NCBI GenBank assembly: GCA_013152315.1 | Contig: JAADGP010000043.1 | Coordinates: forward strand, 1 to 61,028 | DNA length: 61,028 nt | Origin: FCB group bacterium | GTDB taxonomy: Bacteria; Fidelibacterota; Marinisomatia; Marinisomatales; JAADGP01 | Reading direction: 5' to 3' | Shown here: positions 4,160 through 8,399 of the stretch, piece after piece | How the letters are laid out: each line of letters opens with the position of its first letter | Position numbering within the stretch: the first letter of the stretch is position 1 | Notes under the pieces: model-generated | What the model was told of the DNA's origin: nothing | Database searches by the model: none | Seen by the model: only the letters and a program-made list of their open reading frames with translations | Program-made: the position numbers and the translations under genes

Positions 4160-4629
4160 TTCCACTCACAGGTTTATGCCCGGCTTTAAGAATTTTAAGA
4201 ATAAACGCACTCTAACGAATATGATTTATCTGTAATGCTCACTCTGTGGTCTGCCCTTGAGAAATAATGTTGAGAGCATTGAAGATAAAATCGGGTTGGG
4301 CAGAACCGGACTGTTATTGAACACCTCACAGCCCGAATTTATAATTACCTATGCGGGTTGTAAATCCAATAATGAACTATAGCACCTACCCCGTATTCAA
4401 GATATTTTTGAAAAAATATGGTTTCCCGGGTGGTAAATTACCGGTCTGCCAAAGAAGCGCGGAATACAAAGACATGATGTGCCTGGATAAATAATTCCCG
4501 ATATTTTAATCACCTTCGCCCCGGGAAAACTCCTTTTATCCCCTGACATTTCCACCGGTTCGCTGGAAATAAGATAACCAACTCAGCCTTAGCGGATTGT
4601 TCGATTTTGATAAGAAAGAAAATTACTTA

Positions 4630-6441
4630 ATGGATATTAGAAATATTGCAATTATTGCCCATGTTGACCATGGGAAAACGACGATGGTGGATCGGATTCT
4701 CCATCAGGTGAAACTGTTCCGGGATAATCAGGAAGTGCGGGATTTGATCCTGGATTCAAGTGACCTGGAACGGGAGCGCGGGATAACCATTTTGTCCAAG
4801 AATGTGTCAGTGCGATATAAGGGAGTGAAGATTAATATTATCGATACTCCCGGCCACTCGGATTTCGGAGGGGAAGTAGAGCGCGTCCTGAATATGGCCG
4901 ACGGTGTGCTGTTGCTGGTTGACGCTTTTGAAGGACCCATGCCGCAAACGCGATTTGTTTTGCAGAAAGCATTGGAACTGGGTTTGAAACCGATCGTCGT
5001 GATCAATAAAGTCGATAAACCGAATTGCAATCCGGGAGAAGTAAACGAACTTGTTTTCGAACTGATGTATTCTCTGGATGCCACGGACGAGCAATTGGAT
5101 TTTCCCACGGTTTACGGTTCCTCAAAACAGGGCTGGATGGGAGCCGACTGGAAAACACCGACGAACGATGTTACCTATTTGCTGGACACGATTATTGAAT
5201 ATATTGATCCGCCAAAGGATAACCAGGGGACTTTACAATTGCAGATTAATTCCCTGGACTATTCGTCATATACCGGGAAGATTGCCGTTGGGAGGGTGCA
5301 CAAGGGAAGTATTAGAATGGGTGACCAGGTTTCCGTTATTCAGAGAGACGGTCAAATCAATAAATCGGTCATTAAGGAACTTTATCTTTTTGAAGGACTG
5401 GGGAAAGTAAAAACCAAGGAAGAGGTTAAGTCCGGCGAAATAGTAGCCATAATGGGACTTGAAAAATTTGACATCGGGGATACCATTGCCGATTTTGATG
5501 AACCGGAAGCTTTAAAGCCGATCGCCGTCGATGAGCCGGCGATGAGTATGCTTTTCACCATTAACAACTCCCCGTTTTTTGGGAGAGAGGGGAAGTATGT
5601 TACCTCACGGCATATCCGGCAAAGATTATTTAAGGAAATCGAGAAGAATCTGGCGTTAAGGGTCGAGGAAACGGATTCACCCGATAAATTACTGGTTTAC
5701 GGCCGGGGTATTCTTCATTTATCCATTTTGGTGGAAACGATGAGGAGAGAGGGGTACGAAATTCAATTGGGTCAGCCCAAAGTGGTGATTAAGGAAATCG
5801 ATGGTTTTAAACATGAGCCGATCGAACTGCTGAATGTAAATGTGCCCAAAGAGTTTTCCGGAAAAGTAATAGAGATCGTTACCAGGCGCAAAGGCGATAT
5901 TCTGAATATCGAGACCAGGAATGACAGGATATTCCTTGAATTCAAAATATCGGCCAGGGGGTTAATCGGACTTACCAAGCCGATCCTGACGGCTACCGAA
6001 GGTGAGGCCGTGATTTCGCACCGGTTCAAGGGTTATGAGCCGTGGAAAGGCGAAATCCAAAGCAAGAGAAATGGCGCGTTGATAGCTATGAAAACCGGAA
6101 CGGCCATCGCGTATTCAATTGACAAACTGCAGGACCGGGGTAAATTTTTCATTGAACCCAATGAAAAAGTGTATGCGGGACAAGTGATCGGTGAGGGCAC
6201 AAGGCAGGATGATATATTAATAAATGTAATCAAGACGAAAAAACTATCCAATATGCGGGCTGCCGGTTCCGATGAAAAAACGTCCATTGCTCCGGCAATA
6301 AAGTTCTCCCTGGAAGAAGCCATGGAATATGTCGGCGAAGATGAATACGTTGAAGTAACCCCCAAATCCATTCGCCTGAGAAAGATAGTGTTAGATGAAC
6401 AGGAAAGGAAGAGGCAAAGGAACCGGAAGGGGAATGGATAG
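4630..6441 (+). CDS. typA: translational GTPase TypA/BipA
   Basis: G motifs AHVDHGKTT, DTPGH and NKVD, with EF-G-like domain order over ~600 aa. ATG at 4630 (MDIRNIAII...) is preferred over the TTG at 4597. Confidence 0.95.
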   Translation: MDIRNIAIIAHVDHGKTTMVDRILHQVKLFRDNQEVRDLILDSSDLERERGITILSKNVSVRYKGVKINIIDTPGHSDFGGEVERVLNMADGVLLLVDAFEGPMPQTRFVLQKALELGLKPIVVINKVDKPNCNPGEVNELVFELMYSLDATDEQLDFPTVYGSSKQGWMGADWKTPTNDVTYLLDTIIEYIDPPKDNQGTLQLQINSLDYSSYTGKIAVGRVHKGSIRMGDQVSVIQRDGQINKSVIKELYLFEGLGKVKTKEEVKSGEIVAIMGLEKFDIGDTIADFDEPEALKPIAVDEPAMSMLFTINNSPFFGREGKYVTSRHIRQRLFKEIEKNLALRVEETDSPDKLLVYGRGILHLSILVETMRREGYEIQLGQPKVVIKEIDGFKHEPIELLNVNVPKEFSGKVIEIVTRRKGDILNIETRNDRIFLEFKISARGLIGLTKPILTATEGEAVISHRFKGYEPWKGEIQSKRNGALIAMKTGTAIAYSIDKLQDRGKFFIEPNEKVYAGQVIGEGTRQDDILINVIKTKKLSNMRAAGSDEKTSIAPAIKFSLEEAMEYVGEDEYVEVTPKSIRLRKIVLDEQERKRQRNRKGNG

Positions 6442-6526
6442 CGTAGACAACTTTTAATTTGTGTGGGCGTGTTGACCAGGGCACTGTAAAATGTTAGTGA
6501 TTTATAACCGTTGGGATCAATAAAAA

Positions 6527-6610
6527 TAAGGCTATAACCTTAAAAACAATTTGCATATATCAGGTTATAGCCTTAATATTGCTTTGTAAAATTAAGGGTG
6601 TAGCCTTATG
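6527..6610 (+). promoter_or_regulatory. candidate promoter/operator of the mobile-mystery A/B operon
   Basis: Perfect 14-bp inverted repeat TAAGGCTATAACCT (6527-6540) / AGGTTATAGCCTTA (6562-6575). TTGCAT (6551-6556)-N17-TAATAT (6574-6579) lies between and over the arms. A third half-site, TAGCCTTA (6601-6608), abuts the ATG. Confidence 0.6.
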
Positions 6611-7066
6611 AAAGAACGTAAATTAATAATAGATCAGCTTGACAGAAAGATTATCAAATACAAGAATCTTGCTGATGTCATCATTCCTCCCAAGGGTTGG
6701 ATCTATTCAATCAGGAAGGCATTGAACATGTCCTTAAGACAGCTTGGTAACAGGATGTCCATTACTCCACAAAGTGTACGGGAGATTGAAGAGCGGGAAA
6801 GAAATGGAACTGTCTCCATAAACGTACTCAGACAAGTAGGGGAGGCTCTAAATATGAAATTTGTTTATGGGTTTATTCCGAAAAACTATACACTAAAAAA
6901 AATGATTGAAGAAAGAGCCCATGAATTAGCAAAAGAAATCGTCCAAAGGACCTCCGTAAGTATGAGCCTGGAGGATCAAAAAACCTCCGATGAAAGAATC
7001 GCACAGGCGATACGGGAAAAAGCGGAGGAAATCCAAGCCAGCATACCAAAGTATTTATGGGATTAG
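6608..7066 (+). CDS. mobile mystery protein A (XRE-type HTH protein)
   Basis: 152 aa with an HTH segment LRQLGNRMSITPQSVREIEERERNGTVSINVLRQVGEAL. Overlaps the downstream Fic gene by 10 nt. This architecture matches the TIGRFAMs mob_myst_A/B pair. Confidence 0.75.
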   Translation: MKERKLIIDQLDRKIIKYKNLADVIIPPKGWIYSIRKALNMSLRQLGNRMSITPQSVREIEERERNGTVSINVLRQVGEALNMKFVYGFIPKNYTLKKMIEERAHELAKEIVQRTSVSMSLEDQKTSDERIAQAIREKAEEIQASIPKYLWD

Positions 7067-7653
7067 AATTAAGTTATATTTATGGTCAAACACCAATCTC
7101 CGAAGAGGAGAAGGATGGATTACTTATTGAAACCATTGCTACCAGAGGTGAACTTAATGAATTCGAACAACAGAATATTGAATCAGCTGTCGAGTGGACA
7201 CTTAGACAAAATTTTAACGCCGACAAAATCCTTACCATTGATTTTATTACCGAAGTTCATAGACGAATGTTTAACAGAGTTTGGAAGTGGGCCGGCACTT
7301 TTAGGAGAACGAACAAGAACATTGGTGTTGATAAGTTTCAAATATCTCAGGAATTGAAAGTTTTACTGGATGATTGTAAATATTGGATTGAGAATAAAAC
7401 ATATTCACATGATGAAATTGCGGTCAGGTTTAAACACAGACTTGTAAAGATACACCCTTTCCCAAATGGGAATGGAAGACATTCACGGTTATGCGCTGAT
7501 ATCCTTATATCTCATGTGTTTAGGAAAAAAGTGTTTTCTTGGGGTGGGGCTGATTTGATACAGCCAAGCGAATCGAGAAAGAAATATTTGAAAGCAATTT
7601 ACAAAGCCGATCAAGGAGAGATTGAGCCTCTGATTAGCTTTGCAAGATCCTAA
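7057..7653 (+). CDS. mobile mystery protein B (Fic/DOC family)
   Basis: 198 aa. Fic active-site motif HPFPNGNGRHSR at nt 7453-7488. Translationally coupled to the upstream HTH gene. Confidence 0.85.
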   Translation: MGLELSYIYGQTPISEEEKDGLLIETIATRGELNEFEQQNIESAVEWTLRQNFNADKILTIDFITEVHRRMFNRVWKWAGTFRRTNKNIGVDKFQISQELKVLLDDCKYWIENKTYSHDEIAVRFKHRLVKIHPFPNGNGRHSRLCADILISHVFRKKVFSWGGADLIQPSESRKKYLKAIYKADQGEIEPLISFARS

Positions 7654-7670
7654 GTCAGATTAGCCCTTGG

Positions 7671-7704
7671 AGTTTGGTTCTTGGCTCTTGATCTTTGGCT
7701 CTTC
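7671..7704 (-). repeat. CAAGARCCAAA short tandem module (reverse orientation) next to a family-2 copy
   Basis: The reverse complement reads GAAGAGCCAAAGAT CAAGAGCCAAGAACCAAACT. Confidence 0.6.
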
Positions 7705-7774
7705 CACGTTTCCCCGACATCCGCTGCGCTTCGCCGGGATCTACGTATCACGCATCACGTTTCACGCATCACGT
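7705..7774 (+). repeat. family-2 element
   Basis: CACGTTTCCCCGACATCCGCTGCGCTTCGCCGGGATCTACG followed by four tandem heptamers (TATCACG CATCACG TTTCACG CATCACG) at 7746-7773. Confidence 0.85.
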
Positions 7775-7913
7775 AAGATTTCGCCCGGCAGGTCAAGTTA
7801 CATAGACCCTATTTGCCTATTAAATTATTTCGGACAGCAGTGGTATGGCGAAATGGAAAGCTCTAAATTTCGGCCCTTTTGGGGCAAAATTTTATTAGGA
7901 TGAATTCATAAAA

Positions 7914-8399
7914 ATGCAAACACCATCAATTTCCGAATGTATTCCGATTCTTCAAACAGCCATCGGGCCGATGATTTTTATTTCGGGCGTTGGCTTGCTG
8001 CTTTTGTCAATGACCAACCGCTTGGGCCGGGCCATCGATCGTACCCGGAGTCTGAGTCGTCATATTCCGGAGGCCACCGGTAATAAACGGGCCCGGATTC
8101 AGGTACAACTCCAAATCCTGTGGAAACGGGCCTGCATGATCCGACTGGCAATTACCTTGGCGTCAATCAGTCTACTGGCGGCAGCCGTGTTAATTATCAG
8201 CCTGTTTATTACCGCGCTGTGTCAGATTGAATCGTCCTGGATCATTGTCGCTTTGTTTATTATCAGTATGCTCTGTTTAATCGGTTCGCTGGTGGTCTTT
8301 ATCCATGATATTTACCGGTCGTTAGCCGCCCTGAAACTGGGTCTTCTCGCCGCCGAGGAAGAATACAACATGGCGGCCATCGTGACGGAGTCCGACTAA
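7914..8399 (+). CDS. DUF2721-like membrane protein
   Basis: 161 aa. An N-terminal TM (GPMIFISGVGLLLLSMTNRLGRAIDRTRSL) and two more TM helices around a charged loop are typical of DUF2721. The family call is from memory. Confidence 0.55.
   Translation: MQTPSISECIPILQTAIGPMIFISGVGLLLLSMTNRLGRAIDRTRSLSRHIPEATGNKRARIQVQLQILWKRACMIRLAITLASISLLAAAVLIISLFITALCQIESSWIIVALFIISMLCLIGSLVVFIHDIYRSLAALKLGLLAAEEEYNMAAIVTESD

Follow-up and report, generated by a model that had tools for sequence, protein, structure and literature searches.

A mobile mystery protein A/B cassette and its proposed reading as a self-repressing, class-I-like Fic toxin-antitoxin module

What might a small Fic-domain enzyme do when its gene is carried from genome to genome behind a gene for a helix-turn-helix (HTH) protein, and what would hold such an enzyme in check? 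The question is raised by two adjacent genes in a 61,028-nucleotide stretch of DNA from an FCB group bacterium of the Fidelibacterota (contig JAADGP010000043.1 of assembly GCA_013152315.1; the whole stretch is referred to below as the window). Gene A (6608-7066, plus strand) encodes a protein of 152 residues with an XRE-type HTH domain, a predicted repressor and putative antitoxin, and gene B (7057-7653, plus strand) encodes a small Fic-domain enzyme of 198 residues, a putative toxin. The two open reading frames (ORFs) overlap by 10 nt, with typA upstream of the pair and a DUF2721 gene downstream. A preliminary description, made from the letters of the sequence, had delineated the same overlapping XRE-type and Fic genes and placed them in the mobile mystery protein A and B family, and both assignments are confirmed here. 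Protein A scores 144.1 bits against the NCBIfam model TIGR02612 (cut-off 122.6; model positions 2-149 of 150) and protein B scores 240.4 bits against TIGR02613 (cut-off 124.4; E = 1.2e-71; model positions 2-186 of 186), so that both exceed the curated cut-offs of these two models, which NCBIfam classes as hypothetical equivalogs. A also matches Pfam HTH_3 over residues 32-83, and B matches the Pfam Fic domain (PF02661) at 44.8 bits (cut-off 24).

The locus is an intact, typical copy of a widespread two-gene mobile cassette and adds a member to a family that is known but uncharacterised. As a further copy of so common a cassette it is ordinary in itself, and the point of interest is the biochemistry of the family. 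An invariant asparagine in the Fic motif, an invariant glutamate-bearing element in the HTH partner and a conserved triple operator are family-level features that make function directly testable, and they could finally allow a function to be assigned to mobile mystery proteins A and B. We favor, with some reserve, the view that A/B is a self-repressing type II toxin-antitoxin (TA) module of class-I-like FicTA type in which the antitoxin is fused to the repressor. In the searched literature the term "mobile mystery protein" appears in annotation lists only, and the active-site string HPFPNGNGR of B returned no literature match.

Composition and mobility of the cassette

The base composition of the A/B pair is foreign to its host. 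The module has a GC content of 0.374, relative to 0.483 for the genome as a whole and to a mean of 0.484 (standard deviation 0.035) for segments of equal length from it (z = -3.2; 0.2% of segments are lower), and the neighboring genes typA and DUF2721 stand at 0.452 and 0.504. At third codon positions the GC content is 0.414 in A (z = -2.8) and 0.333 in B (z = -4.4) versus 0.558 +/- 0.051 over 997 long ORFs, a scale on which typA (0.521) and DUF2721 (0.596) are host-like, and the synonymous codon usage of A and B combined falls in the lowest 1% (z = -2.5). The AT-richness relative to typA and DUF2721 that the preliminary description had judged by eye is thus borne out by segment-wise GC content, third-position GC content and codon usage alike. 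Across the family, the GC content of the module is about 0.38 independently of that of the host.

The distribution of the pair is patchy and points in the same direction. It is single-copy in the source genome, and a true family member is present in 3 of the 41 genomes of the host order, the sole other genome of the genus being without one; a mobile, patchy distribution of this kind is also what is expected of type II TA systems. Beyond the order, homologs of B form more than 8000 clusters at 90% identity, with 256 representatives at E < 1e-30 after clustering at 50%. The nearest metagenomic copies of B are 80-86% identical, and the named relatives belong to Bacteroidales and Marinimicrobia. 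At 80 genome loci drawn from Bacteroidota, Neomarinimicrobiota, Ignavibacteriae, Chlorobiota, Leptospiraceae, Acidobacteriaceae, Novosphingobium and other groups, A lies directly 5' of B in 79, and the remaining locus is interrupted by the end of a contig. Their neighborhoods are nearly unrelated: 254 flanking proteins fall into 235 clusters, and a common neighbor family is found in 23 of 2775 locus pairs. Most neighbors are housekeeping genes, and those that recur are MnmE (5 loci), the type I restriction subunit HsdR (2) and an integrase (2). Identical proteins occur in two populations, beside insertion sequence (IS) elements together with AbiEii in the first and beside pgk in the second. 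Homologs of B are also carried by 258 plasmids, 101 of them conjugative (in Agrobacterium, Rhizobium, Sinorhizobium, Bradyrhizobium, Coxiella and Vibrio), and the alpha-proteobacterial plasmid copies retain the A-then-B pair, annotated there as mobile mystery A and B. A set of 50,697 phage records contained no homolog of B. One of the refuting observations named in the preliminary description, homologs lying uniformly in a conserved core genome and resembling their hosts in composition, is clearly not what is seen.

Similarity between the closest cassettes at the DNA level starts about 90 nt before the ATG of A and ends at the stop codon of B, which places the transferable unit at approximately 6515-7653. 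No recombinase, tRNA or terminal repeat accompanies this unit; no tRNA lies within 20 kb of the pair, and no flanking direct or inverted repeats able to mark a transposon were found. We read the locus as a self-contained cassette, about 1.14 kb long, that reached the source genome by horizontal transfer, and the pair as marking a recent acquisition of this kind beside typA.

Two further observations concern the settings in which relatives of the cassette are found. In a Marinimicrobia-type population (loci L014-L016, the contexts of P0035), the cassette adjoins two rve_3 IS copies of identical sequence, between which lies an AbiEi/AbiEii-like pair, an arrangement that suggests a composite-transposon-like patch of defense or TA genes. 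Plasmid homologs of B at roughly 45-50% identity include 19 Coxiella records and about 100 Agrobacterium plasmids, and some of these adjoin a DUF3991/toprim gene; mobile mystery protein A/B is the only annotation that they bear.

Enzyme, partner and operators

The Fic active site of B, H133-P-F-P-N137-G-N-G-R141-H-S-R144, is encoded at 7453-7488 on the plus strand (HPFPNGNGRHSR; residues 133-144). It agrees with the full motif HxFx(D/E)GNGRxxR at every position except the fifth, where asparagine stands, so that the canonical motif is not matched. The preliminary description had called this site almost canonical and had pointed to the asparagine; the residue proves to be a signature of the family and is not peculiar to this copy. 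Among 124 full-length family representatives (clustered at 50% and ranging down to 37% identity), N137 is found in 119 (96%), alongside H in 116, F in 114, G in 122, N in 121, G in 120, R141 in 123 and R144 in 122. Judging from the conserved substitution, the use of metal or co-substrate by B may differ from that of canonical Fic enzymes. The Doc-type kinase motif HxFx(D/N)(A/G)NKR is not matched, since B has G140 (Gly in 120 of 124) where that motif has lysine, and the intact GNGR anion hole favors transfer of a nucleoside monophosphate (NMP) over Doc-type phosphorylation.

Several observations indicate that B has no inhibitory element of its own. The B family profile is closest to FICD (1.4e-17), NmFic (5.7e-13), EfFic and VbhT (9e-11). 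A regular-expression search finds no strict (S/T)xxxE(G/N) motif in B, and the matches to the strict motif within the B family (17 of 124 representatives) are scattered in position. The one invariant glutamate of B, E37 (123 of 124), was considered as a cis inhibitory residue and rejected, as it aligns with a FICD glutamate about 28 residues downstream of the inhibitory helix alpha-inh. The protein ends, at residue 198, right after the helices that align with the post-core helices of FICD. From the lack of a strict motif, the placement of E37 and the position of the C terminus together, we infer that no inhibitory helix is present in B, whether at the class II position or at that of class III. 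B thus has neither the N-terminal nor the C-terminal cis [S/T]xxxE[G/N] that characterizes those two classes, and it resembles class I, whose Fic proteins have no inhibitory helix in cis.

An inhibitor in trans would be sought in the partner. An AlphaFold2 model of A (pLDDT 88.7) consists of an N-terminal helix (residues 2-23), the XRE HTH core (31-80), an extended linker (81-95) and a C-terminal half in which a loop (120-126) connects two long helices (96-119 and 127-145). The DNA-binding core (residues 30-90, with model helices at 31-38, 43-50, 54-66 and 71-80) is encoded at 6695-6877 and the C-terminal helical domain (residues 96-152), which is putatively the B-neutralising part, at 6893-7063, both on the plus strand. 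In a Foldseek search of the model only the HTH part was recognised, with the antitoxins HigA and HipB at the top (weak E values of 0.1-0.3). In the C-terminal domain, A108, V112, R114, M119, L121, E122, Q124, L150 and W151 are invariant in an alignment of 45 A sequences, and over 76 homologs M119, L121, E122 and Q124 remain invariant, with V112 kept in 73, R114 in 74 and T115 in 72, giving the pattern R114-T-x-x-(T/S/N)118-M119-x-L121-E122-(D/N)123-Q124. The four invariant residues are retained even in alpha-proteobacterial plasmid copies at 35% identity.

At the center of this pattern, where the first long helix ends and the loop begins, lies S118-M-S-L-E122-D-Q (6959-6979, plus strand; family consensus (T/S/N)MxLE(D/N)Q), a candidate trans inhibitory motif. 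A contains no other [ST]xxxE site than S118-M-S-L-E122-D, which departs from the Fic inhibitory motif (S/T)xxxE(G/N) by a single residue, and 8 of 76 homologs have the strict motif at the same column, for instance as SMKLEN or TMKLEN. The surrounding residues 111-130 are the lowest-confidence blocks of the model of A alone, as would be expected of an element that binds a partner. The preliminary description had seen no clear inhibitory motif in either protein and had supposed that control might differ from that of class I-III Fic systems. A strict motif is indeed absent, but the relaxed match in A had been overlooked, and since it occupies the most conserved position of the C-terminal domain, the supposition of a different mode of control is not upheld. 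The invariant glutamate element makes a class-I-like inhibitor acting in trans the leading hypothesis.

Single ORFs in which A, or the C-terminal domain of A, is joined to B exist in the family. They are P0140 (315 residues) and P0245 (267 residues), the latter opening with ...RTDSSMKLENQ..., a strict SxxxEN, ahead of its B domain; these could be real Rosetta-stone fusions or artefacts of frameshift or gene calling.

The DNA ahead of A also bears on how the pair is controlled. In an alignment of seven upstream regions, conservation is confined to the stretch between about -90 and the ATG, a promoter/operator region that corresponds to 6515-6607 on the plus strand, and no similarity is found further 5'. 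This region holds three predicted operators: O1 (AAGGCTATAACCTT, a 14-bp palindrome at 6528-6541, -80 from the ATG of A), O2 (CAGGTTATAGCCTT, 6561-6574, at -47) and O3 (AAGGGTGTAGCCTT, 6594-6607, at -14), of which O2 falls between -35-like and -10-like hexamers and O3 abuts the start codon. The palindromes are spaced by 33 nt, or about three helical turns. Of 76 loci, 23, which belong to different phyla, have the motif (A/C)AGGnTATAnCCTT ahead of A, and 10 have it at the same three positions, with the O1-like copy at -78 to -80 in 10 relatives; its density is 4.39 per kb upstream versus 0.065 per kb in the remainder of those loci, a 68-fold enrichment. The sequence CCTTATG at O3 and the start codon is invariant in the seven aligned loci. 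More distant cassettes have other TATA-centred palindromes, as expected if operator and repressor co-evolve. A possible promoter, TTGCAT-17-TAATAT (6551-6579, plus strand), was not called by a scan for the sigma-70 consensus because no more than 3 of the 6 bases of TTGCAT agree with TTGACA; its assignment comes from the alignment, where both the TTG and the TA-rich hexamer keep their places. Recurrence of the three palindromes upstream of relatives in other phyla suggests that A represses its own operon. A/B thus has the attributes of a type II TA system in its compact bicistronic operon, its predicted DNA-binding antitoxin and the predicted operators within its own promoter.

A proposed mechanism and its alternatives

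These features can be assembled into a working mechanism. B would be a Fic-fold nucleotidyl transferase, probably an AMP transferase, without an inhibitory helix of its own. Dimers of A would occupy the three operators over the promoter and start codon through the XRE HTH and repress the operon, and the C-terminal helical domain of A would bind B and hold it inactive. In class I Fic toxins, inhibition is exerted by an upstream antitoxin with [S/T]xxxE[G/N], whose glutamate pairs with the second arginine of the Fic motif (PMC5033356). By analogy, Glu122 of A might reach the site of the ATP gamma-phosphate and pair with Arg144 of B, as Glu24 of VbhA does in VbhT; we regard this assignment of the specific inhibitory step as possible but somewhat less likely than not. 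Loss or titration of A would then free B for NMPylation of an essential target, and growth would stop. By analogy, candidates for that target are GyrB/ParE, reported as the target of VbhT and NmFic (PMC5033356; PMC7479194, PMC13327609), or EF-Tu, on which Doc and SoFic act. The A:B complex might also remove AMP while Glu122 is in place, as is reported of the Fic-1-AntF TA complex (PMC13327609).

A number of points weigh against this mechanism. The searched literature holds no experimental or functional study of any TIGR02612 or TIGR02613 member. No empty site was found in relatives, and the insertion event itself is thus not demonstrated; as DUF2721 is absent from 40 of them, the boundaries of the insertion are drawn only from DNA similarity between cassettes. 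The motif in the window ends in Asp rather than Gly or Asn, and about a third of A homologs have Asn at position 118. Comparison of the C-terminal domain of A with VbhA and with a 23-sequence alignment of the VbhA family gave hhalign probabilities of 0.9% and 0.1%, Pfam PF18495 (VbhA) had no match at E up to 10 among 28 A C-terminal domains, and a PDB profile search with this domain returned only coiled-coil noise. With homology undetectable, the resemblance of A to VbhA is an analogy at the level of the motif, possibly a convergent one, and the Glu122-Arg144 contact is hypothetical. Finally, the asparagine at position 5 could change or weaken catalysis by B.

If that last effect were complete, B would be a catalytically dead Fic pseudoenzyme, with asparagine in place of the Mg2+-binding acidic residue, and the pair would act by binding only. 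We consider this very improbable. The histidine, the phenylalanine, the Gly-Asn-Gly anion hole and both arginines are each conserved in at least 92% of the 124 representatives, and conservation of the asparagine together with the rest of the active site indicates that it is under selection, which argues against a dead enzyme. Moreover, asparagine can coordinate Mg2+ through its carbonyl, an arrangement known from the catalytic loop of kinases that act on proteins. It is true that the acidic residue at this position binds the ATP phosphates via Mg2+ in canonical Fic AMP transferases, yet it is poorly conserved in some subgroups of class I FicT proteins (PMC5033356). Alternatively, A and B may form a non-toxic regulatory or signaling pair, in which B reversibly modifies A or a host protein, or A:B is mainly a de-AMPylase, in the service of transcriptional control or homeostasis. 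A is a predicted sequence-specific regulator with three phased operators, and the asparagine at the metal site may tune the chemistry of B. FICD and EfFic with the inhibitory glutamate in place act as de-AMPylases, and the activity reported for Fic-1-AntF extends this to a TA complex. Every operator site found, however, lies in the cassette's own promoter, relative to the low background density given above, and the patchy, plasmid-borne and context-free spread of the pair is typical of selfish addiction modules rather than of integrated host regulators. A purely regulatory role is therefore decidedly unlikely in our estimation.

An abortive-infection or anti-phage function is compatible with the TA mechanism and differs from it in role, with A holding B inactive until phage infection leads to the removal or titration of A, whereupon B would act on an essential factor of host or phage and so abort the infection. 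Among the PADLOC models, B matches the candidate PDC-S04 (best 1.6e-22, 78 bits) as well as SoFic (5e-10), with both of which it shares the Fic domain, and a preprint reports that SoFic AMPylates EF-Tu (bioRxiv 10.64898/2026.07.09.737422). PDC-S04 is only a candidate system, however, and these scores are far below the 240 bits that B attains against TIGR02613. About 8 of 133 immediate neighbors are defense-like by PADLOC (type I, IIG and III restriction-modification, AbiEi, a ZorD/DpdE-like helicase, PDC-S18 and SoFic), and an AbiEii gene and IS copies adjoin the P0035 copies, but most copies, including the one in the window, stand alone among metabolic or housekeeping genes. The searched literature reports no defense phenotype for the A/B family. 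With so few defense-like neighbors and no phage-borne copies, the defense-island or phage context for which the preliminary description had proposed to look is weak, and we think a dedicated defense role unlikely. Of its proposal of a TA or defense-like addiction module, the TA or addiction character is supported by the nearly universal A-then-B operon, the unrelated contexts, the patchiness, the plasmid carriage and the operators.

Flanking DNA and comparison with known Fic systems

The region highlighted by the preliminary description began at 6442, which is the first base past the stop codon of typA, and A itself starts at 6608. The typA product matches TIGR01394 at 866 bits. Its ORF has two possible starts, TTG at 4597 or ATG at 4630 (MDIRNIAII...), of which the ATG is more likely because the TIGR01394 match opens at residue 14 of the longer form. 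The DUF2721 gene (7914-8399) is patchy: no ortholog was found in 40 related genomes of the order, apart from one weak match with an internal stop, so the claim that both flanking genes are housekeeping does not extend to it. The other genome of the genus is without DUF2721 and has only weak typA-like matches (44% identity), and exact-protein look-ups for TypA, with either start, and for DUF2721 found nothing. A dispersed repeat noted as following the module, the family-2 repeat, does exist at 7705-7774, but pieces of it are found on about 40 further contigs of the source genome, which makes it host repeat DNA outside the cassette. It contains, at 7743-7770, a tandem 14-nt unit (ACGTATCACGCATC / ACGTTTCACGCATC) with short matches on many contigs of the genome. 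No Rfam match falls within 6300-8000. Elsewhere, mnmE (trmE) lies directly upstream of A in 5 of 76 loci (in Chryseobacterium, Saprospiraceae and Agriterribacter), and the 3' end of mnmE is a known hot spot for the integration of islands. The upstream gene in the window, typA, is another GTPase gene like mnmE, and coincidence, a hot spot or a functional link are all possible.

Within TIGR02612 and TIGR02613 we see no difference between this locus and the records bearing those names, which have the same overlapping A-then-B pair. Pairs of Fic/Doc and Xre genes were predicted to be type II TA systems in 2009 by Makarova, Wolf and Koonin (PMC2701414), and a count of Tn7 cargo included TIGR02613 as a TA toxin of Fic/Doc type (PMC8649781). 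The 2009 pairs share with A/B an Xre-type HTH gene beside a Fic/Doc gene in a mobile two-gene operon; that survey gave adjacency only (22 occurrences), without analysis of motifs or operators, and may have included other Fic subfamilies.

The SoFic model of PADLOC spans 361 positions, and SoFic is a class II Fic protein with further domains. Phd-Doc of phage P1 offers a parallel to the proposed scheme, in that a Fic-fold toxin is neutralised by a C-terminal helical segment of a DNA-binding, autorepressing antitoxin (PMC10440598), as may be the case for B and A. Doc, however, has a kinase-type motif with lysine (..NKR) where B keeps GNGR, and Phd is not an XRE HTH protein. With the class I FicTA systems (VbhT-VbhA of Bartonella schoenbuchensis, EcFicT-EcFicA (YhfG) and Fic-1-AntF), A/B shares a small Fic protein without an inhibitory helix, encoded just 3' of the gene for a small partner. 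VbhA, whose sequence was verified against PDB entries 3SHG and 3ZC7, and A also have in common a helix, an [S/T]xxLE element, a short loop and a second helix, with ASQRLEG (...ALASQRLEGLEPDPQVV...) in VbhA and SMSLED in A (family consensus TMKLED). There are also differences. A has 152 residues and an N-terminal XRE HTH, whereas VbhA has 62 and no HTH; the motif of A ends in D or N and often begins with Asn, whereas that of FicTA ends in G or N; and B has Asn at position 5 of the Fic motif, unlike the Asp or Glu of class I FicTA, and C-terminal helices that align to FICD and not to VbhT.

One attractive, though speculative, possibility is that the A/B family is a distinct, repressor-fused arrangement of class I Fic systems, in which MxLExQ arose independently of VbhA within the C-terminal domain of an XRE repressor, paired with an enzyme whose invariant asparagine replaces the acidic metal ligand. 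If so, a single protein would couple obstruction of an active site to the occupancy of three phased operators, and the replacement of the acidic ligand would imply that the chemistry of metal or co-substrate is altered and that the target is perhaps a new one.

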